A stretch of 55,383 bases of DNA, from NCBI GenBank assembly GCA_046861645.1, contig JBHHUM010000006.1:1-55383 (forward strand), in the 5' to 3' direction. The first letter of the stretch is position 1, and the number at the start of each line of letters is the position of its first letter. This document shows, one piece after another, positions 24,475 to 55,289 of this stretch. The notes under the pieces were generated by a model that worked only from the letters and a program-made list of their open reading frames with translations, was not told the DNA's origin and made no database searches. Position numbers and translations under genes: made by a program. This stretch comes from Fidelibacterota bacterium. Its GTDB lineage: Bacteria; Fidelibacterota; Marinisomatia; Marinisomatales; UBA2128.

Positions 24475-25484
24475 AACGCTTTCTGATCTTGGCTCTGATA
24501 TTATCTGCGGTGGTTCACGCGGAGTTTGATAAAGTGGGAACCACTACGGCTCAATTTTTAAAGATGGGTGTGGGTGCGCGAGCAAAAGCCATGGGTGGTA
24601 GCTTTGTTGCCCTGTCTGATGATGGTACTGCCCACTACTGGAACCCGGCCGGTATGGTAGTAGCCCAGGGAATTTCTACGACGTTCAGTCATACAGATTG
24701 GGCCCTTGATATTACACATGAATTTGTCAGCGTAACCGTCCCGCGAGGTCCAGTAGGAGTGTTTGGTCTATCCATCTCAGCCCTGACCATGGATGAGAAG
24801 GAAGTTACTACGGTTATTGAACAGGATGGATCTGGTCTCTATTACAGTGTCATGGATATGGCTCTGGCAGCGAGCTATGCCCGACGCATGAGTGACCGTC
24901 TTGCCTACGGGGTTACGCTCAAATACATTCATCTGGCAGCCTATAACGAGATTGCCCAGACGTTTGCCATTGACATAGGTTCTATTCTCCAGACTGATTT
25001 CTACGGGATGAAGATTGGGATGGCCCTATCAAATTTTGGTGGGGAACCCAGGTATTCGGGAAGGGACCTCCTGCAAAAAGCCGATGTAGAAAAAGATGTG
25101 GAAGGGAATGTGTTGACAGAAGCTGAATTGAAGACGGAGCCGTGGCCTTTGCCGCTGATGATTCGTATCGGTGTTGCCATGGATGTGCTGGGACAGGAAG
25201 AGGCTATCCTGTCCAGGAGTGCCCACAGATTGACACTGACCCTTGATGCTGAGCATCCCAACGATGCCCCCGAACATCTGAACTTTGGCCTTGAGTTCGC
25301 TTTCCGGGAGCTGTTTTACCTCCGGGGGGGTTATCGATTGAACTATGATCTGGATAAGTTTTCGGTGGGCGCGGGCTTTAGACTACCGTTGGCTAACTTG
25401 ACCACCACTATTGATTATGCCGTCATGCCTTTTGGTCCTTTCGGGACAACGGCGTTTATCTCCATTGGGGTTTTTCTGAAATAG
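24471..25484 (+). CDS. PorV/PorQ (UPF0164) family outer-membrane beta-barrel
   Basis: KVGTTTAQFLKMGVGARAKAMGG...YWNPAG, HTDW, GMALSNFG, PLPLMIRIG, HPND, GLEF...LRGGY. Confidence 0.85.
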   Translation: MKRFLILALILSAVVHAEFDKVGTTTAQFLKMGVGARAKAMGGSFVALSDDGTAHYWNPAGMVVAQGISTTFSHTDWALDITHEFVSVTVPRGPVGVFGLSISALTMDEKEVTTVIEQDGSGLYYSVMDMALAASYARRMSDRLAYGVTLKYIHLAAYNEIAQTFAIDIGSILQTDFYGMKIGMALSNFGGEPRYSGRDLLQKADVEKDVEGNVLTEAELKTEPWPLPLMIRIGVAMDVLGQEEAILSRSAHRLTLTLDAEHPNDAPEHLNFGLEFAFRELFYLRGGYRLNYDLDKFSVGAGFRLPLANLTTTIDYAVMPFGPFGTTAFISIGVFLK

Positions 25485-25526
25485 GGTCGATGGGAAGAAG
25501 AATTTGAATTACAGGAGGGTAAAACA

Positions 25527-26507
25527 GTGATAAAAGCGCCATTGATCTTGTATAAGATATTGTTGATAATCTGGTGTTTACCCCTGTGGGCTGAGTCTGG
25601 AGAAAAGGAGCTTCCTGTTACACCAGTGCCCGGATTACCGGTAGCTGCTGAGGCCTACTTTTCCCCCGATGGCAGGAGCTTAATCTGTAATGCCAGAGTC
25701 CAGGAGGACGATGAAGTACACCATGTCTATGTGGCCAACGTTGACGGTACCAATATCCGTCGTATTAATGATCAAGGAGAGGACGCCTGCTCGTACTTTT
25801 TTCCTTCGGGAGATAAGATTATCTGGACTTCTACCCGGGACTATCCCGACATTCCCGTTGGCGATTGGTCTGTTCCCACGATTTACCCCCAGGGAGCGGA
25901 ATTGTATGTAAGCGACCCTGATGGCGCTAACATCCAGCGCTTGACCCACAACCAGTATTATGATGCCGAGGTATCTGTCTCCCCGGATGGTAACTGGATA
26001 CTCTTCACTCGTCAGATTGACGGTAAGCTGGACCTCTGGCGCATGCGTCCTGATGGTACCGGGGAATTCCAGATCACCCATACAGACGATTGGCAGGAAG
26101 GGGGTTCCTTCTACATGCCGGATAGTGAGACTATTCTGTACCGGGCGTGGAAGCGGGAATTTGATGATAAGCGAGCCAAACCTATGACGATCTTCACCAT
26201 CAAACATGATGGTACGGATCGAAAGCAGATCACTTTCGATGATGGCACCAATTGGGCTCCTCATCCTGGTCCTGATGGGAAGCATTTCGTATTTGTGAAA
26301 GTGCTACCACCCCACAATTTTGAAATATATATGATGAATATCGAGACGGGTGAACAGACTCGCCTGACCTACAGTGACGCTTTTGACGGTTTTCCGGTCA
26401 TGTCCCCAGACGGCAGGAGTGTCCTGTTCAGTTCCAGCCGCGATGCCGCTCCCGGTGAACGTAAACTGAGTCTATTCATCATGGATATCAGTTCATTGAT
26501 GGAGTAG
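25527..26507 (+). CDS. TolB-like PD40 beta-propeller protein, exported
   Basis: SD GGAGG; signal peptide; repeats AEAYFSPDG, YDAEVSVSPDG, RLTY..AFDGFPVMSPDG. Confidence 0.85.
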   Translation: MIKAPLILYKILLIIWCLPLWAESGEKELPVTPVPGLPVAAEAYFSPDGRSLICNARVQEDDEVHHVYVANVDGTNIRRINDQGEDACSYFFPSGDKIIWTSTRDYPDIPVGDWSVPTIYPQGAELYVSDPDGANIQRLTHNQYYDAEVSVSPDGNWILFTRQIDGKLDLWRMRPDGTGEFQITHTDDWQEGGSFYMPDSETILYRAWKREFDDKRAKPMTIFTIKHDGTDRKQITFDDGTNWAPHPGPDGKHFVFVKVLPPHNFEIYMMNIETGEQTRLTYSDAFDGFPVMSPDGRSVLFSSSRDAAPGERKLSLFIMDISSLME

Positions 26508-26533
26508 TTGCTGGTCAGTCTACCTGTAGTGAT

Positions 26534-26556
26534 ACTCCCTTTCATGGGAGTTTATT
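26534..26556 (+). terminator. Possible terminator hairpin after the TolB-like gene
   Basis: ACTCCC-TTTCAT-GGGAGT-TTATT. Confidence 0.45.
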
Positions 26557-26591
26557 CGCCTGTCCCGTAGTGAGGTACGAACGTATCGGGG
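26557..26591 (+). repeat. 35-bp dispersed repeat, copy 1
   Basis: CGCCTGTCCCGTAGTGAGGTACGAACGTATCGGGG; 28/35 ungapped identity to 31940-31974. Confidence 0.7.
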
Positions 26592-26648
26592 ATTAAGCGC
26601 AGGGGTTCACCCCCTCGCTTGCATATTATTCTGTAAATTCCCACTGTC

Positions 26649-26714
26649 ATGAACGTCTTCGTCACCGACGGCACCAGATTCGTGGGGGGCTACGTTCTGG
26701 AAGTCCTTCTTGAG
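26649..26714 (+). pseudogene. Degenerate copy of the 5' end of the NAD-dependent epimerase gene at 28512
   Basis: MNVFVTDGTRFVGGYVLEVLLE vs MRIFVTGGTGFVGGYVLEALQE; 53/66 nt identical; Rossmann glycines mutated; both copies preceded by TGTAAATTC. Confidence 0.85.
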
Positions 26715-26750
26715 GTCGTTAATTTCCCTATACCCATTGTGCTATAAAAG

Positions 26751-26779
26751 GTAGCCCCCGCAGGCGCGGGGATGAACCG
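26751..26779 (+). CRISPR. Solitary type I-E-like CRISPR repeat (not an array)
   Basis: GTAGCCCCCGCAGGCGCGGGGATGAACCG: 29 nt, CCCCGC/GCGGGG stem, 4-nt loop, ATGAACCG handle; 21/29 identical to the E. coli I-E repeat GTGTTCCCCGCGCCAGCGGGGATAAACCG. Confidence 0.7.
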
Positions 26780-26900
26780 GCAGGAGAAATGTCAGTCGTG
26801 GTGTAGCATGGTATACTGGACTCAACGGTCCAGCTTCGGCAAAAGAAGCTCCTTCTTATTCATCACAGCCCTGATAAAATTAACAGAGGTATGTGATTAA

Positions 26901-26944
26901 ATACTGGTATATTTGTATAGGATGATATACATTTATACCAGTAT
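26901..26944. promoter_or_regulatory. Long inverted repeat (putative operator) upstream of the AAA ATPase
   Basis: ATACTGGTATATTTGTATA-GGATGA-TATACATTTATACCAGTAT; arms 17/19 complementary. Confidence 0.6.
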
Positions 26945-26965
26945 AAAGGTATAGGATGTCTGAAA

Positions 26966-28234
26966 ATGCTTTACCCAAGAGATATTGAAAAAGAAATACT
27001 AAATGAATTAGACAGTCCACGGGCACTATTTATTTTGGGCGCCCGCAGAACCGGAAAGACATCGTTGTTACAACGAATTCGCGAACAACTTCCTTCTGGC
27101 AGTAAATCCCTGTACATTGATTTTGAAGATCCGGATGCGCTGTCTATTGTCAAAACAGGCTACAAGAGCTTTTTGGCTTACATTGACGGGCTGGGTTTTT
27201 CTCCCGGACAGAAAGTATATGTTTTTTTGGATGAAATTCAGTACTTGAGAGATTTTGCCTCATTTATTAAGCTGCTGGTAGATCACCATTCCAAACGTGT
27301 CAAACTAATCTTGAGCGGTTCATCGGCGGCACAGATCAAATTCCAGTTCAAAGATTCATTAGTTGGGCGGAAATTTATTTATGAACTGTTTCCGCTTACA
27401 TTCCGGGAATTTGTCGTTTTTAAAGAGGAACAGAATTTGGTGCGTCTATTAGGCGCCAACAGACAGCAGGCGGATACTGACGGTCTCGGATTTTTTGTTA
27501 AAGATTTACTCCGTTATTACTATGAATATATGAATTACGGCGGGTATCCTGAAGTTGTTCTTGCGCCCGAATATGCAAAAAAACAAAAGCTGCTAAAGGA
27601 AATCTCTCATGCCTACATCTTAAAAGACATCCACAATATATTCCAGGTAGAAAGACTTGATTCATTTAATAATCTGGTGAAAATCCTGGCTTTACAGGTC
27701 GGTCAGCTTCTTAATGTCTCCTCTTTGTCACGGGATAGTAAAACTACCAGACCTACAGCAGAGAAGTATATTAATATCTTGGAAGACACGTTTATTGTCC
27801 GGCGTGTTCCGCCGTTATTCACCAATAAGAAAAAAGAATTGAGAAGAATGCCTAAAATATTTTTCCTTGATACGGGTCTTAGAAACTATTTAATAAATAA
27901 CTTTTCTGAATTTTCATTTAGAACAGACAGGGGACAATTACTTGAAAACACAGTTTTCTCCGCAATGTGGAAAAACCGTGAAATAATGGATAAGTTATTT
28001 TTCTGGCATACGGCGGACGGTAAAGAAGTTGATTTTATTCTGCAGAAGGGAGTTGATTATATCCCCTTTGAAGTAAAGGTAAAACGAACAGCTGTCAATC
28101 ATCTGAAAATATTCGCTGAACTGTATAACAGTCCTGAAATGAATCTTGTGCGATTGGACCCGGGCGCTATATCCGAAGGATCCTATGGACAAACAAGTGC
28201 AAACATTCAGGTGATACCTCCCTGGGTCATTTAG
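26966..28234 (+). CDS. AAA_14 ATPase with wHTH/DUF4143 C-terminal domain
   Basis: Walker A GARRTGKT, Walker B VFLDEIQ, LSGSS, SLVGRK, PLTFREF, YGGYPE, PKIFFLDTGL, LLEN, EVDF...FEVK; visibly AT-richer than flanking genes. Confidence 0.92.
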   Translation: MLYPRDIEKEILNELDSPRALFILGARRTGKTSLLQRIREQLPSGSKSLYIDFEDPDALSIVKTGYKSFLAYIDGLGFSPGQKVYVFLDEIQYLRDFASFIKLLVDHHSKRVKLILSGSSAAQIKFQFKDSLVGRKFIYELFPLTFREFVVFKEEQNLVRLLGANRQQADTDGLGFFVKDLLRYYYEYMNYGGYPEVVLAPEYAKKQKLLKEISHAYILKDIHNIFQVERLDSFNNLVKILALQVGQLLNVSSLSRDSKTTRPTAEKYINILEDTFIVRRVPPLFTNKKKELRRMPKIFFLDTGLRNYLINNFSEFSFRTDRGQLLENTVFSAMWKNREIMDKLFFWHTADGKEVDFILQKGVDYIPFEVKVKRTAVNHLKIFAELYNSPEMNLVRLDPGAISEGSYGQTSANIQVIPPWVI

Positions 28235-28511
28235 GACAAAAATCTATGCAGCTAATCCTCAACAGCTTCGGTGCCTATCTCTACAAGTCAGGGGATATTG
28301 TTAAGATCAAGGTGCAAAAATAAATCGTCTAAATGAACGCACCCTGTCTACATTACCTGCCCGACTGGCGGGCGATGGGCAGGTACTAAAACAAGGATTG
28401 AAAATCCGATAGTTAACTAACATTAAGCCAATGCCAACTGGAGTGGATGGATCGTGTATTGGTTTAAGCGGCTGATACTTTTGACTTAGAATGATGTAAA
28501 TTCTCTTCACC

Positions 28512-29441
28512 ATGAGAATTTTTGTCACCGGCGGCACCGGATTCGTAGGGGGCTACGTTTTGGAAGCCCTCCAAGAGACTGGTCATCAAATCATAGCATT
28601 AGTACGATCCGGGAGTGAGCACAAACTCTCTGCTGATTTTTCTGGTGAGACCGTTCCTGGTGATGTATTCAACTTTATGTTCCCTTCAGAGTGCGATGTT
28701 GTGATTCACCTTATCGGTATCCTTCGTTCTAACCTCTGGCGGGGGGAGACCTTTGAGAAGCTTCACTTTCGGGCCGCTAAGGTCGTTGTGGATAAGGCCG
28801 CAGCTGCTGGTGTCAAGAGATTCCTGCTGGTGAGTGCCAATGGTGTGAAATCTGATGGAACCGCGTATCAAAGAACAAAGTATATGGCTGAGCAATACCT
28901 CCGCAACAGCAGTTTGGAGTGGATCATCTTTCGTCCGTCAGTGCTGTTTGGCGATCCGGCCCATCCCAGTGGAGATGTGGGTAAGCCCGAGTTCAGCTCC
29001 CTTCTCTACAGACAGATGGTGAAACCACCAATTCCAGCGCCCATGTTTCATCCAGGGTTAAAAATCAGGCAGTCAGGTGAGTTTAAGCTACAGCCAGCTT
29101 ATGTTGGAGACTTGGCAAAGGGTATGGTGAAGGCTCTTACTAATGACTTGTCAGCTGGGAAAATATATCATGTGGGCGGTTCTGCTAAGCTGACGTGGCG
29201 GGAAACTATTGATACGGTTGCTGCAGCTGTGGAGAAACCCCGTAAATGGAAGCTCCCCGTGCCTGCCTGGGGGATTGGAGCTGCAGCGGCTGTGCTGGGA
29301 TGGCTGCCTTTTTTTCCCATCACCCGGGACCAGATCACCATGCTGATGGAGGGAAATACGTGCGATGGGAGTGGCTTCTACCGTGATTTCGACATCCAAC
29401 CAACAGCTTTCACTCCTGAGAATCTGGGATATCTTCGATAA
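28512..29441 (+). CDS. NAD-dependent epimerase/dehydratase, NDUFA9-like atypical SDR
   Basis: IFVTGGTGFVG Rossmann motif, VIHLIGI, GVKRFLLVSA, YQRTK, IFRPSVLFG, PITRDQITML. Confidence 0.9.
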   Translation: MRIFVTGGTGFVGGYVLEALQETGHQIIALVRSGSEHKLSADFSGETVPGDVFNFMFPSECDVVIHLIGILRSNLWRGETFEKLHFRAAKVVVDKAAAAGVKRFLLVSANGVKSDGTAYQRTKYMAEQYLRNSSLEWIIFRPSVLFGDPAHPSGDVGKPEFSSLLYRQMVKPPIPAPMFHPGLKIRQSGEFKLQPAYVGDLAKGMVKALTNDLSAGKIYHVGGSAKLTWRETIDTVAAAVEKPRKWKLPVPAWGIGAAAAVLGWLPFFPITRDQITMLMEGNTCDGSGFYRDFDIQPTAFTPENLGYLR

Positions 29442-51543: not shown

Positions 51544-51724
51544 TATGCTTTAAACGTATCCTCTTTTTGTATTAATAGTTGTGGCATTTTGATTTTTTAA
51601 TCAATTGAGGAGTACAACAATAGTTTAACATTTTCTCATGTATACATAATATAATTATGATATTTATACATATTACCTAATAATATCTTGGATTAAAGCA
51701 ATATATTAAATATTTTTAAGTGGC

Positions 51725-52174
51725 ATGTTAGATGACATTGACAGGAAGCTGCTGGAGCTTCTCCAGGAAGATGGACGTAAAACAGCAAAAGATGCAGCTG
51801 AGCAGGTGGCTATGTCCATTCCGGCAACTGCGGAACGTATCAGACGTTTGGTAGATGGGGGATACATACACGATTTTAGGGCTGTGGTTGATCCTAAAAA
51901 AGTGGGCTATGATGTTACCTCCTTTATATTGGTAGTGATGTCCTCTTCTGCCTATTATGAAGAATTAGTGCGGCACGCCAAAGAGTCCAATGAAATCTTA
52001 GAATGTCACTCCATAACTGGTGAAGGCTCACATTTACTGAAGGTCAGGCTCAAAGATACTTCAGCCCTGGAAGGACTACTCCGGAAAATTCAGTCGTGGG
52101 AAGGGGTCCTTCGTACACACACCATGGTGGTCATGTCCACCTTTAAGGAAGAAACTCACTTAAGTATTTCATGA
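51725..52174 (+). CDS. Lrp/AsnC family transcriptional regulator
   Basis: LDDIDRKLLELLQEDGR, ERIRRL..GG.I, ECHSITGE..LLKV; long AT-rich upstream region. Confidence 0.93.
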   Translation: MLDDIDRKLLELLQEDGRKTAKDAAEQVAMSIPATAERIRRLVDGGYIHDFRAVVDPKKVGYDVTSFILVVMSSSAYYEELVRHAKESNEILECHSITGEGSHLLKVRLKDTSALEGLLRKIQSWEGVLRTHTMVVMSTFKEETHLSIS

Positions 52175-53313
52175 CGGGTTCTACAGCAGACTATGAGGTT
52201 GTGATTATAGGTGCAGGCGTAATAGGTCTTTCCGTGGCGAAGGGTCTGGCAGAACAGGGGGTGCAGGAAGTATTGTTGATTGAAAAGGAAGAAGCTTTTG
52301 GGAGGGGAACCTCCAGTCGTAACAGTGAAGTAATCCACTCTGGGATTTATTATGAACCCAATTCCTTGAAGGCCAGATACTGCTGCTTGGGTCGGGAGCT
52401 GCTCTATCCTTTTTGCCGGGAAAACGATATCTGGCATAGTCGCTGTGGGAAGCTTGTGATAGCCAAAGATGGACAAGAAGATGATCTGCAGGTTCTATAT
52501 GAGAATGCCCAGACCAATGGAGTACCAGAGCTCTCTCTTTTAGATGATGAACAGGTGGCAGTTTTGGAACCGGAGATATCTGTTTCGGCAGCTCTTTTTG
52601 TGGGCTGCACTGGTATTATTTCTGCGCATGAACTCATGGCGGCCTTCTACCGTATTGCCGAGGATGGGGGTCATGATCTTGTGTTGAAAGCACGTACCGT
52701 GGATGTTGAACCCAGAGGAGATATATACACCCTGGAGGTAGAGGGACCTGGGGAGGCGAGATATAAGGTAACGACTGACTGGGTAGTGAACGCAGCGGGC
52801 CTATATAGTGATCGAGTGGCAGAATTGTTGTGGGGGACAGAGGATAAAAATCGACCGGTATTGCATCTATCCAAAGGGTCTTATTTTAAGCTGACACCTA
52901 AGTGGCGTCAGCGTGTTCAGCATCTGGTCTATCCTTTGCCAGATGCAGGTAGTGACTCTCTGGGTATTCATATCAGTTTTGACGCCAACGGTGATTTAAG
53001 ACTCGGACCCAACGTAAGGTGGTTATCAAATCGTAATGAAGATTATGTTGTGCAAGAAGAGGATAGAACCTTTTTTTATCAGGAAGCAAAGCAATATCTG
53101 CCAGCTCTTGAACAGGATGATTTAACACCTGATTTTGCTGGCATTCGACCCAAACTTTCAACACCAAGGGGGAAACCTTCTGATTTCTACATCCAACATG
53201 AGATTGACCGGGGTTACCCGGGATGGATAAACCTGATTGGTATCGATTCACCTGGACTGACTGCGGCCATTGCCATTGGTGAAGAGGTAGCGTCGTGGAT
53301 AAAAGGGAGTTAA
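52171..53313 (+). CDS. FAD-dependent oxidoreductase, L-2-hydroxyglutarate oxidase (LhgO)-like
   Basis: VIIGAGVIG, GTSSRNSEVIHSGIYY..SLKA, CGKLVIA, VNAAGLYSD, LGIH, GIRPKL, GIDSPGLTAA. Confidence 0.88.
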   Translation: MTGSTADYEVVIIGAGVIGLSVAKGLAEQGVQEVLLIEKEEAFGRGTSSRNSEVIHSGIYYEPNSLKARYCCLGRELLYPFCRENDIWHSRCGKLVIAKDGQEDDLQVLYENAQTNGVPELSLLDDEQVAVLEPEISVSAALFVGCTGIISAHELMAAFYRIAEDGGHDLVLKARTVDVEPRGDIYTLEVEGPGEARYKVTTDWVVNAAGLYSDRVAELLWGTEDKNRPVLHLSKGSYFKLTPKWRQRVQHLVYPLPDAGSDSLGIHISFDANGDLRLGPNVRWLSNRNEDYVVQEEDRTFFYQEAKQYLPALEQDDLTPDFAGIRPKLSTPRGKPSDFYIQHEIDRGYPGWINLIGIDSPGLTAAIAIGEEVASWIKGS

Positions 53314-53331
53314 ATAGGGAGAGGAAATAAT

Positions 53332-54345
53332 ATGGGCAAGGTTAAAGCTGAATATATCTGGATGGACGGTCACAAACCAACCCAGAAATTACGTTCTAAA
53401 ACTAAGGTGATTATTGGACCTGTAACAGCGGTTGAAGATATCCCCGTCTGGGGATTTGATGGTTCCAGTACCATGCAGGCTGAAGGACACAACAGTGATT
53501 GTATGCTTCAACCTGTTTACTTTGTTGCAGATCCTATCCGTAATGGTGATAATATCCTAGTGATGTGTGAGGTGTATAATGCCGATGGTACACCACATAA
53601 GACCAATCCACGTGCTCATCTACGGGCGGTGGTGGAGAAGTATACGGAGCACGATCCCTGGTTTGGCATTGAACAAGAATATACTTTTTTCGTTGGTAGA
53701 ACTCCCCTGGGTTGGCCAGACGGAGGGTATCCTGCACCCCAGGGTCCCTTCTATTGTGGTGTCGGGGCTGATGAGGTTTTCGGACGCAATATTGTCGAGG
53801 AACACCTGGATAAGTGTTTGAAAGCTGGAATCAGTATCTCTGGTATTAACGCCGAAGTTATGCCGGGGCAGTGGGAGTTTCAGGTGGGACCTTTAGGACC
53901 TTTAGCAGTAGCGGATGAATTGTGGTTGGCTCGTTGGCTACTTTATCGTATAGCCGAAGGCTACGGCGTTAATGCTACACTTCATCCCAAGCCGGTGAAG
54001 GGAGATTGGAACGGAGCTGGAGCCCATACCAATTTTAGTATCAAATCCATGCGGGAAAACGGTGGAATGGAGATTATTACTGCAGCGTGTGAGAAGTTAG
54101 GGGTAAACCATGAAAAACATATTGCGGTTTATGGGGCGCACAATGAAGAGCGTCTCACAGGATTACACGAAACTTGTGCGATACATGAGTTCCGTTATGC
54201 TGTAAGCGACCGGGGGGCTTCTATCCGGATACCAATGGCTACAGCTAATGCCGGGCGCGGCTACCTCGAGGATCGCCGCCCTGCAGCCAACATGGATCCC
54301 TATCAGGTGTGTGCGGTACTGATAGAGACTGTGTGTGGAGAGTAA
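53332..54345 (+). CDS. glnII: Glutamine synthetase type II
   Basis: 337 aa; AEYIWMDG, LRSKTK, WGFDGSST, WFGIEQEYT, PQGPFYCGVG, GINAEVMPGQWEFQVGP, HPKP..GDWNGAGAH, RLTGLHET, RGASIRIP, YLEDRRPAANMDPY. Confidence 0.95.
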   Translation: MGKVKAEYIWMDGHKPTQKLRSKTKVIIGPVTAVEDIPVWGFDGSSTMQAEGHNSDCMLQPVYFVADPIRNGDNILVMCEVYNADGTPHKTNPRAHLRAVVEKYTEHDPWFGIEQEYTFFVGRTPLGWPDGGYPAPQGPFYCGVGADEVFGRNIVEEHLDKCLKAGISISGINAEVMPGQWEFQVGPLGPLAVADELWLARWLLYRIAEGYGVNATLHPKPVKGDWNGAGAHTNFSIKSMRENGGMEIITAACEKLGVNHEKHIAVYGAHNEERLTGLHETCAIHEFRYAVSDRGASIRIPMATANAGRGYLEDRRPAANMDPYQVCAVLIETVCGE

Positions 54346-54416
54346 TTCAGAATTCAGTATATAACAGAAAATCCTTTACAAGTTTTAACACTTTTCATTA
54401 TTCCAGAAAATTGGTG

Positions 54417-54452
54417 TTGAAAATAGTGGTGTTATGTGTTAAGTTACACCAC
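54417..54452 (+). promoter_or_regulatory. Promoter overlapped by an inverted repeat (putative XRE operator)
   Basis: TTGAAA-17 nt-TAAGTT; GTGGTGTTA(54426)...TTACACCAC(54444), 8/9 complementary. Confidence 0.5.
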
Positions 54453-54505
54453 AACACTTTTTGGTTTTAACCGTATCGAATAAATATCCATCAATAGAAG
54501 CAAAC

Positions 54506-55204
54506 GTGAATCAAGCTACAATAAGCAAAGAAGCCCGAGAGTCATTTGGGGAATTTATCCGTTCCCACCGTCAGAAAAAGGAGTTGGGTATCAGGGAAAT
54601 TGAGCGCATATCTGACGGACTGATCAAGGCGCCGTATCTGAGCCGTATTGAGCACGGACGGGAGAACCCGCCCGGTGAGGGGATACTCTCAAAGCTATCT
54701 GAAATTTTAGAAGTTGATCGGGATGAGATATTTGCCCAGGCAGGGAAGATGCCGCCGGAACTTCAGGAAGCCTATGTTAAAGAAAAAACTGTACGAACCA
54801 CCTATCGTGCGGTAAAAGAGCGTAGTGGGGAGATTAGCGAGCCTGGCACAATGTACCAATCGAGGGGTGAATTGACTGACCGATCGAAATTACTGGCAAA
54901 GGAGCTTAAGCGGTGGACGGATATTCTGGTAAAGCAATACAACCCAGAGAAAATTATTTTATTTGGGTCGTTTGCGAAAGGGAGAGTCCATGGATGGTCA
55001 GATATTGACATCATAATTATTAAAAAAACCGATCTCCCTTTTTTAAAGCGAACAAGAGAAATAATCCGATTGTTGGATCCTATGGTAGGAGCTGACTTTT
55101 TAGTTTATACACCCCAGGAATTTGATGAACTGTGTAAAAACAGAAGATTTTTTAAACAAGAGGTGCTAACAAAAGGAACGGTCATTTTTGAAAGAACCCA
55201 TTAA
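54506..55204 (+). CDS. XRE-family HTH fused to a minimal nucleotidyltransferase (MNT/MntA-like)
   Basis: FGEFIRSHR..LGIRE...YLSRIEHG..PP HTH; then PEKIILFGSFAKG..HGWSDIDII (GS-X10-DXD) and DFLVYTPQEF. Start could be GTG 54506 or TTG 54461. Confidence 0.85.
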   Translation: MNQATISKEARESFGEFIRSHRQKKELGIREIERISDGLIKAPYLSRIEHGRENPPGEGILSKLSEILEVDRDEIFAQAGKMPPELQEAYVKEKTVRTTYRAVKERSGEISEPGTMYQSRGELTDRSKLLAKELKRWTDILVKQYNPEKIILFGSFAKGRVHGWSDIDIIIIKKTDLPFLKRTREIIRLLDPMVGADFLVYTPQEFDELCKNRRFFKQEVLTKGTVIFERTH

Positions 55205-55289
55205 TTACTGGATAAGTTTTGCAGAGGAAGCATTGAAGGTAGCTAGGGAGGTCTTCGAAAGAATTGGACTGGTAAGTGGTGAATGGTAA
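55188..55289 (+). pseudogene. Truncated HEPN-domain gene remnant
   Basis: TTG start overlapping the MNT 3' end; MKEPINYWISFAEEALKVAREVFE resembles the HEPN first helix (W..FAEED L..A); stops after 33 aa. Confidence 0.55.

Follow-up and report, generated by a model that had tools for sequence, protein, structure and literature searches.

Does a solitary CRISPR-like repeat just upstream of an ATPase gene encode a guide-like RNA, or is it what remains of an array? The question was raised by a 55,383-bp contig (C145; this entire contig is the window analyzed here), one of the 184 contigs of a MAG (2.51 Mb, 94.5% complete, 43% G+C). The first-pass annotation had described a lone type I-E repeat, a 31-nt spacer and a pseudo-repeat hairpin on an inserted segment. 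It had favored a crRNA mimic of the Racr or CreA kind and kept a decayed array as its fallback. The features involved are collected in Table 1. Genomes of the order carry G numbers (G000 is the MAG itself) and their contigs C numbers.

Table 1. Features at and around the solitary repeat (window coordinates).
Feature	Position	Strand	Details
Multi-copy short intergenic (REP-like) element	26513-26599	+	downstream of PD40 gene; 90% copy at G000:C44:8042-8130
Left copy of 83-nt direct repeat	26632-26714	+	77% identical to 28495-28577; 88% to G003 epimerase start
36-nt unique sequence between junction and repeat	26715-26750	+	contains TGCTATAAA
Solitary type I-E-family CRISPR repeat	26751-26779	+	GTAGCCCCCGCAGGCGCGGGGATGAACCG, 29 nt
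Fast-diverging trailer	26780-26860	+	"31-nt spacer", CTGGAC/GTCCAG hairpin, second hairpin AGCTTC/GAAGCT
Palindrome, 19-nt arms	26901-26944	+	just upstream of ATPase start; conserved in G003
AAA_14 + DUF4143 ATPase, 422 aa	26966-28234	+	Pfam E 1e-29 and 4.5e-41; PADLOC phage-defence candidate PDC-S01
Probable cas1 stub, non-I-E, 25 codons	28246-28323	+	starts MQLILNSFGAYLYK; 11 nt past ATPase stop
3' half of 37-nt second-type CRISPR repeat	28385-28403	+	...ACAAGGATTGAAA; 16/19 to G000:C16 array-tail repeat
Right copy of 83-nt direct repeat	28495-28577	+	upstream region and start of live NAD-dependent epimerase gene (28512-29441)

The layout of the 29-nt unit and its similarity to arrays in relatives identify it as a genuine type I-E-family CRISPR repeat. 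The family is characterized by a length of about 29 nt, a 6-bp GC stem, a 4-nt loop and an 8-nt 3' handle of the form AT(A/G)AACCG, and the unit has all of these (GTAGC, stem CCCCGC, loop AGGC, stem GCGGGG, handle ATGAACCG). The hairpins of the repeat and of the following unit at 26811 were both present in the predicted fold. The repeat was identical at 26 of 29 positions to the first repeat of G138:C112, with 24 consecutive identities that include the handle, at 25 of 29 to the first repeat of G003:C70 and, in the same register, at 22 of 29 to the 18 repeats beside the complete I-E operon of G027:C68. The G027 array thus adjoins a I-E operon, and the G138 repeats adjoin remnants of cas7e and cas5e. 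These comparisons bear out the annotated single I-E repeat with intact stem and 8-nt handle. An Rfam scan of positions 25000-29000 at E values up to 10 gave noise matches only, with no CRISPR-DR family at the repeat.

The repeat is single, in the window and in the genome. The window held one match at three or fewer mismatches, and none of 100 shuffled sequences matched. The 2.51-Mb genome held one copy, and allowing up to seven substitutions added one match, with seven mismatches, on C67. An array has at least two regularly spaced repeats; here there was one. Contigs assembled from DNA runs (Logan) spanned 26566-28700 in four runs, with no variant within the repeat and no joints; the four runs are from two samples of one study and are labelled hydrothermal vent metagenome. 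The single copy is therefore real, and no longer-array variant was seen in the contigs of these four runs.

A chance look-alike or a REP-type palindrome was considered and rejected. In its favor, the hairpin is GC-rich and intergenic, with a multi-copy element 150 nt upstream. The single-copy state, which also disposes of the REP explanation that the first-pass annotation had allowed for, the shuffles, the 24-nt identity with G138 and a reversed-pattern control with no match in any of the 233 genomes of the order leave this explanation a negligible chance. The upstream element at 26513-26599 is native intergenic DNA outside the insert described below. Its copies on C28, C53 and C86 are weaker or partial, several genomes of the order contain the 34-nt core at 85-97% identity, and the Logan contigs break there, at about 3x depth.

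The divergence of the repeat has spared its stem and handle. Three of the four differences from the G003:C70 repeat are in the 5' flank and one is in the loop; the 12 positions of the stem and the 8 of the handle are all unchanged (uniform decay would give this with P about 0.005; 126/23751). This pattern indicates that the repeat either left a working array recently or has been under constraint. A recent origin fits: G003 does not have the segment 26520-26782, and its unconstrained DNA already differs by about a third.

Relics of I-E loci are the norm in this order. The core pattern was found in 5 of the 233 genomes, of which one has an intact I-E system and four have only one to three repeats, with no Cas1 or Cas6e found. 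The intact system, in G027:C68, has 18 repeats (17 with the exact core) beside cas3, cse1, cse2, cas7e, cas5e, cas6e, cas1e and cas2e. G003, which is of the same genus as the MAG, and G005 each retain one good I-E repeat, followed by a spacer and a second, degenerate repeat (on C70 and C36, respectively), with no detectable Cas1, Cas6e or Cas7e. In G138:C112, where decay is in progress, three repeats lie beside a truncated cas7e and a cas5e.

These relic loci have some features of their own. The loci in G003:C70 (L012 8045-8200) and G005:C36 (L013 12227-12385), two genomes of different families, share the order good repeat, 32-nt spacer, degenerate repeat and solitary GGTTGCTCC...GGAGAGGATTGAA(A/G)C unit. 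The 32-nt spacers differ, and both loci are downstream of FAD oxidoreductase and glutamine synthetase genes. The G138:C112 locus (L021 8307-12733) has a C-terminal cas7e fragment, an intact-looking cas5e and a 92-residue N-terminal PDC-S13/S04-like fragment, the frame of which runs into the first of the three repeats. Beyond the repeats come an unknown ORF, a REP-tyrosine-transposase-like gene, a 14-codon cas1 stub and a PDC-S01 ATPase gene. The genome with the intact I-E system also has, at G027:C78 (L018), a Cas9-like gene followed by cas1 and cas2.

The solitary repeat is at the left edge of an insert. The insert is about 1.8 kb (about 26715-28494) and is bracketed by the two copies of the 83-nt direct repeat, and the congener G002 has the empty site (PD40 gene, 54 nt, epimerase gene). 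The annotated insertion beside the AAA-DUF4143 gene thus stands. The left copy of the direct repeat, which marks the left edge, reads as a dead duplication of the DNA preceding the epimerase gene together with its first ~21 codons. Twelve nucleotides at 26685-26696 are complementary to the 5' end of the repeat; as junction microhomology this was rejected, since with 7 such pairs in 2.3 kb it cannot be told from chance.

An orthologous cassette is at the same site in G003:C24, with 93% DNA identity. It is without the repeat and has other junctions, namely a duplicated PD40 3' end at the left and 2.3 kb of extra DNA at the right. Homology to the window starts 3-10 nt past the end of the repeat (26782-26790), and conservation is high again from around 26860. 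The PD40-epimerase site behaves as an insertion hot spot.

The rest of the insert also appears to derive from a CRISPR locus. The 25-codon ORF downstream of the ATPase gene translates as MQLILNSFGAYLYKSGDIVKIKVQK. Its best matches outside the genus, within the order, were the N-termini of a 322- and a 324-residue protein in G139 and G004, both of which score E 1e-83 on the Cas1 model TIGR00287. In reverse tblastn, the stub was the best match in the whole MAG of the G139 and G004 Cas1 proteins (52-54% over 23-24 residues from residue 1, E 0.08-0.2). Pfam and NCBIfam searches with the 25- and 29-residue cas1 stubs gave no match. The same stub is in G003:C24. The short match gains weight from G138, where the 14-codon stub follows a REP-tyrosine-transposase-like gene, as the intact cas1 does in G139, and it gains support from the adjacent half repeat at 28385-28403. 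The earlier statement that the window is without cas genes is thus correct for intact genes and misses this probable fragment.

The half repeat has 13 consecutive identities with the C16 repeat within its 16/19 match, and it resembles the array beside cas1 in G004. The homology between the window and G003:C24 ends exactly at its end, 28403. Since one insert combines a I-E repeat, a gene that is a defence candidate, a probable cas1 stub and a second-type half repeat, we take it to be a translocated piece of a composite CRISPR locus in decay.

The fragment probably came from a CRISPR/defence locus that is now unassembled beyond the window end. C16 of the same genome starts within an array of 37-nt repeats (GTCTAAACGACCAATCCAATACAACAAGGATTGAAAC, ending in ATTGAAAC). 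Window positions 51642-55244 match the left part of G003:C70 (FAD oxidoreductase, HTH-nucleotidyltransferase), and C16 matches its right part (RpiB and Hyp genes); the right end of the window and C16 thus share synteny with one side each of that contig. This places an unassembled CRISPR/defence locus between C145 and C16, about 27 kb from the repeat. The counterpart locus in G003:C70 has a I-E mini-array, a trailer unit GGTTGCTCC... and a paralogous PDC-S01 ATPase gene. The first 170 nt of C16 (G000:C16:1-170; L266) contain one full and one partial 37-nt repeat and then a GTTGCTCCGTCCCTTCGGGGGCGG unit. At the other side of the gap, window positions 54461-55260 contain an HTH and nucleotidyltransferase gene followed at the contig end by an apparently truncated HEPN partner, which is intact in G003.

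I-E cas genes were undetectable in the assembled genome. Profile searches of the MAG gave no match for Cas6e (PF08798) or Cas1 (PF01867); the Cas6e search was not very sensitive, its positive control being found in only 1 of 14 control genomes. A tblastn search with the eight I-E Cas proteins of G027 found nothing below E 0.1 in the MAG. By the same searches Cas6e and Cas1 were not found in G001, G002, G003 or G005, and Cas7e was not found in G000, G001, G003 or G005. The host I-E system that a mimic would act on was thus not found in the 94.5%-complete MAG, and neither Cas1 nor Cas6e was found in three congeners.

I-E cas genes may lie within the gap between C145 and C16, and the repeat could then be the first repeat of a live, one-unit array served in trans by Cas proteins encoded there. 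In favor of this, relatives have CRISPR relics at the position of the gap, the start of C16 falls within a second-type array, and the repeat is canonical. We consider such an array very unlikely, given that there is no second repeat, that no MAG contig ends in a I-E repeat, that the four runs gave no array variants and that G003 has only relics at the syntenic locus.

Based on the relics and the insert, we conclude that the repeat is probably a fossil of a decayed CRISPR locus that was moved together with a candidate defence gene. The fallback of the first-pass annotation, a decayed array, was essentially right. We infer the following order of events. The repeat would be the last surviving unit of a type I-E array. 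A piece of ~1.8 kb of the decayed composite locus, with the I-E repeat, the PDC-S01-type ATPase gene, the cas1 stub and half a second-type repeat, would then have been inserted between the PD40 beta-propeller and epimerase genes, duplicating 83 nt of the epimerase start. At most, the repeat would form a stable GC hairpin in transcripts reading toward the ATPase gene. In our judgement the repeat does not work as a guide RNA in this genome, because no Cas6e or Cascade was found, the next "repeat" does not appear to be one, and the downstream DNA drifts like neutral DNA.

The closest known kind is the orphan CRISPR remnant. In orphan and degenerate arrays that have lost their cas genes (an example is the orphan CRISPR2 of Enterococcus faecalis, PMC4580645), repeats of a recognizable subtype persist without matching cas genes and relatives show stages of decay. 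The present case differs in that a single repeat is left, relocated with a neighboring gene and accompanied by relics of another CRISPR type. As a fossil, the repeat would have little functional weight. It would be a clear, datable example of the decay of CRISPR-Cas loci in a marine lineage, in which pieces of such loci that carry candidate defence genes relocate with repeats at their edges.

The DNA flanking the repeat gave no evidence of a guide. Upstream, the extended -10-like motif TGCTATAAA is readable at 26740-26748, 2 nt before the repeat, as annotated; a promoter scan called no promoter at these positions. The 36 nt at 26715-26750 had no match in relatives, the MAG or phages and may be an old spacer or leader. 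Downstream, the promoter and terminator scan placed a sigma-70-like site at 26789-26817. It also gave a minus-strand terminator-like call at the repeat hairpin, which we rejected since no convergent gene ends there.

The annotated spacer and pseudo-repeat held up only as to position. A second hairpin unit, GTATA-CTGGAC-TCAACG-GTCCAG, does begin at 26811, 60 nt past the repeat start. Its likeness to the repeat is at the level of chance (9-10 of 29 identities with the repeat or the family consensus, where chance gives about 7), and its stem is not kept in G003. The stretch 26782-26837 is about 64% identical to G003:C24 (36 of 56 columns), in contrast to 93% for the cassette, and the CTGGAC/GTCCAG and AGCTTC/GAAGCT stems are both lost there. 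For the flanks of the repeat (31-33 nt downstream, 32-43 nt upstream), matches in the MAG were only 10-15 nt long. The best of these were 13-15 nt and left spacer positions 1-4 uncovered; the top one, 15 nt on C149 (E 0.036), did not cover the seed. The 31-mer had no seed-plus-PAM target in the genome and the spacer-like parts had no match in the phage collection, so the check that had been proposed for the spacer yielded no target in either.

Viral sequences carry units of the same family. Viral contigs held 62 loci with the CCCCGC-N4-GCGGGGATGAACCG core, of which 9 were truly solitary, and no flank was common to the window and any of the 62. One 36-nt viral match (L197) runs 12 nt past the repeat and is of low quality. 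The one borderline match in the phage collection was to the repeat core itself and not to the spacer-like parts: an unannotated 27-nt sequence in Saccharomonospora phage PIS 136 (JX006077.1 15859-15885; 92.6%, E 0.08), which may be a viral solitary repeat unit.

These data bear on the favored proposal of the first-pass annotation, in which a Racr or CreA-like crRNA mimic is transcribed from TGCTATAAA, bound by Cas6e or Cascade, and poisons or redirects a I-E system. As described by Camara-Wilpert et al. 2023 (PMC10651486), Racr units are solitary CRISPR-like repeats on viruses or plasmids, often directly downstream of a promoter; about 90% of the prophages and viruses that encode them infect CRISPR-Cas hosts, and 83% match the cas subtype of the host. 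The window resembles these units in having a single CRISPR-like repeat without cas genes and a promoter-like motif directly upstream, and it differs in that the repeat is in chromosomal housekeeping DNA with no I-E cas found. There was no phage, plasmid, integrase, transposase or acr-like gene at 10-42 kb in the window and no phage DNA match; the genes there are of housekeeping kinds (aconitase family, M16 peptidase, TonB receptor, PorV-like, PD40, epimerase, PhoU, AhpC). A matching cas subtype was not found in the 94.5%-complete MAG, which has the unassembled locus beyond the window end.

The comparison with CreA came out similarly. CreA-type guides (CreTA type) have two repeat-like elements with a spacer-like guide between them, lie within or beside a cas operon, and have a partial target at a nearby promoter. 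The window shares a repeat and a spacer-sized stretch with them. It differs in that a second repeat-like element (the candidate being at chance similarity, with a stem lost in the congener), a cas operon and a seed-plus-PAM promoter target were not found here. The solitary unit with intact stem and handle, the -10-like motif, the insert setting and the solitary viral units all speak for a mimic. Set against the housekeeping surroundings, the missing I-E cas genes, the pseudo-repeat of chance-level similarity and no conservation, the lack of a self-target or of flanks shared with viral units, and a G003 locus without the unit, they leave it with very low probability. For screens for RNA anti-CRISPRs or crRNA-like regulators, the locus would serve as a warning that a solitary repeat may look canonical, follow a promoter-like motif and still be no more than wreckage.

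The neighboring ATPase gene is a full-length member of its candidate class. Residues 1-396 of the protein align to positions 1-365 of the 375 of profile PDLC04789 (E 4.7e-93). PDC-S01 is a single-gene AAA_14 and DUF4143 candidate that PADLOC names from its genomic neighbourhood, and the paralogs in G003:C70 and G138 match the same profile. No link of PDC-S01 to CRISPR repeats was apparent in the excerpts of publications that pair "DUF4143" with "CRISPR". Positions 26901-26958 contain the palindrome and a 24-nt direct repeat, both conserved in G003:C24 and operator-like, and 26901-26944 is likely the operator/promoter region of the ATPase gene.

I-E repeats are associated with one subfamily of these ATPases. 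The order holds seven genes of the subfamily, each at least 52% identical to the window protein; identity is 51-56% among the three groups compared pairwise, and other paralogs reach at most 37%. A I-E repeat is upstream on the same strand in three of the seven (at 215, 263-324 and 1637-1759 nt) and absent in four. Conversely, three of the five I-E repeat loci in the 233 genomes adjoin one of these seven genes, far beyond chance. Among more distant homologs, the I-E-type core (CCCCGC-loop-GCGGGG-A) was near the gene at 0 of 75 genome loci (24-45% identity, plus the G003 ortholog) and 0 of 80 metagenome loci (33-45%), which confines the link to the 51-56% subfamily of this order. Looser screens of the homologs gave a few unrelated GC hairpins.

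The check that had been proposed for homologous ATPase loci thus had a mixed outcome, and the refutation by lack of conservation there is only half borne out: I-E repeats precede three of the seven subfamily genes, and the ortholog in G003:C24 encodes a 95% identical protein and its locus is without the repeat. All three repeat-bearing ATPase loci lie among relics of the same two CRISPR types. We read the link as descent from one composite locus and not as a functional pair.

The recurrence upstream of three subfamily genes and the untouched stem and handle would also be expected of a working cis element, in which the hairpin is retained for regulating or insulating the PDC-S01 ATPase gene or for recognition by the ATPase. 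Four of the seven genes, including the 95% identical ortholog, and all of the distant loci do without it. The distances vary widely, with genes intervening in G138, and the ATPase gene has its own conserved palindrome and promoter region nearer to its start. We find a cis element improbable. Nonetheless, the link of the repeat to one PDC-S01 ATPase subfamily is the only part of the fossil reading that might repay a wider survey.

The cassette boundaries coincide with CRISPR repeats. The left boundary of the cassette common to the two congeners is within 3-10 nt of the end of the I-E repeat, its right boundary is exactly the end of the second-type repeat, and in G138 another defence-candidate gene ends exactly at the first repeat. 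Conceivably, though we doubt it, CRISPR repeats are break-and-join points that move defence cassettes, the PDC-S01 cassette being an exchangeable module, or the ATPase is a CRISPR-linked accessory gene whose upstream repeat is kept. In the first case, and unless shared wreckage explains the pattern, repeat-flanked PDC-S01 cassettes would be mobile or exchangeable and would recombine through their CRISPR repeats.

The hot spot in G003:C24 (L022 3031-5469, 7536-9302) has taken up other DNA as well. Between the PD40 and epimerase genes it carries an M78-peptidase/HTH pair, a ribbon-helix-helix protein and a 588-residue protein without a Pfam match as extra cargo, and the duplicate of the PD40 3' end there is 249 nt long.
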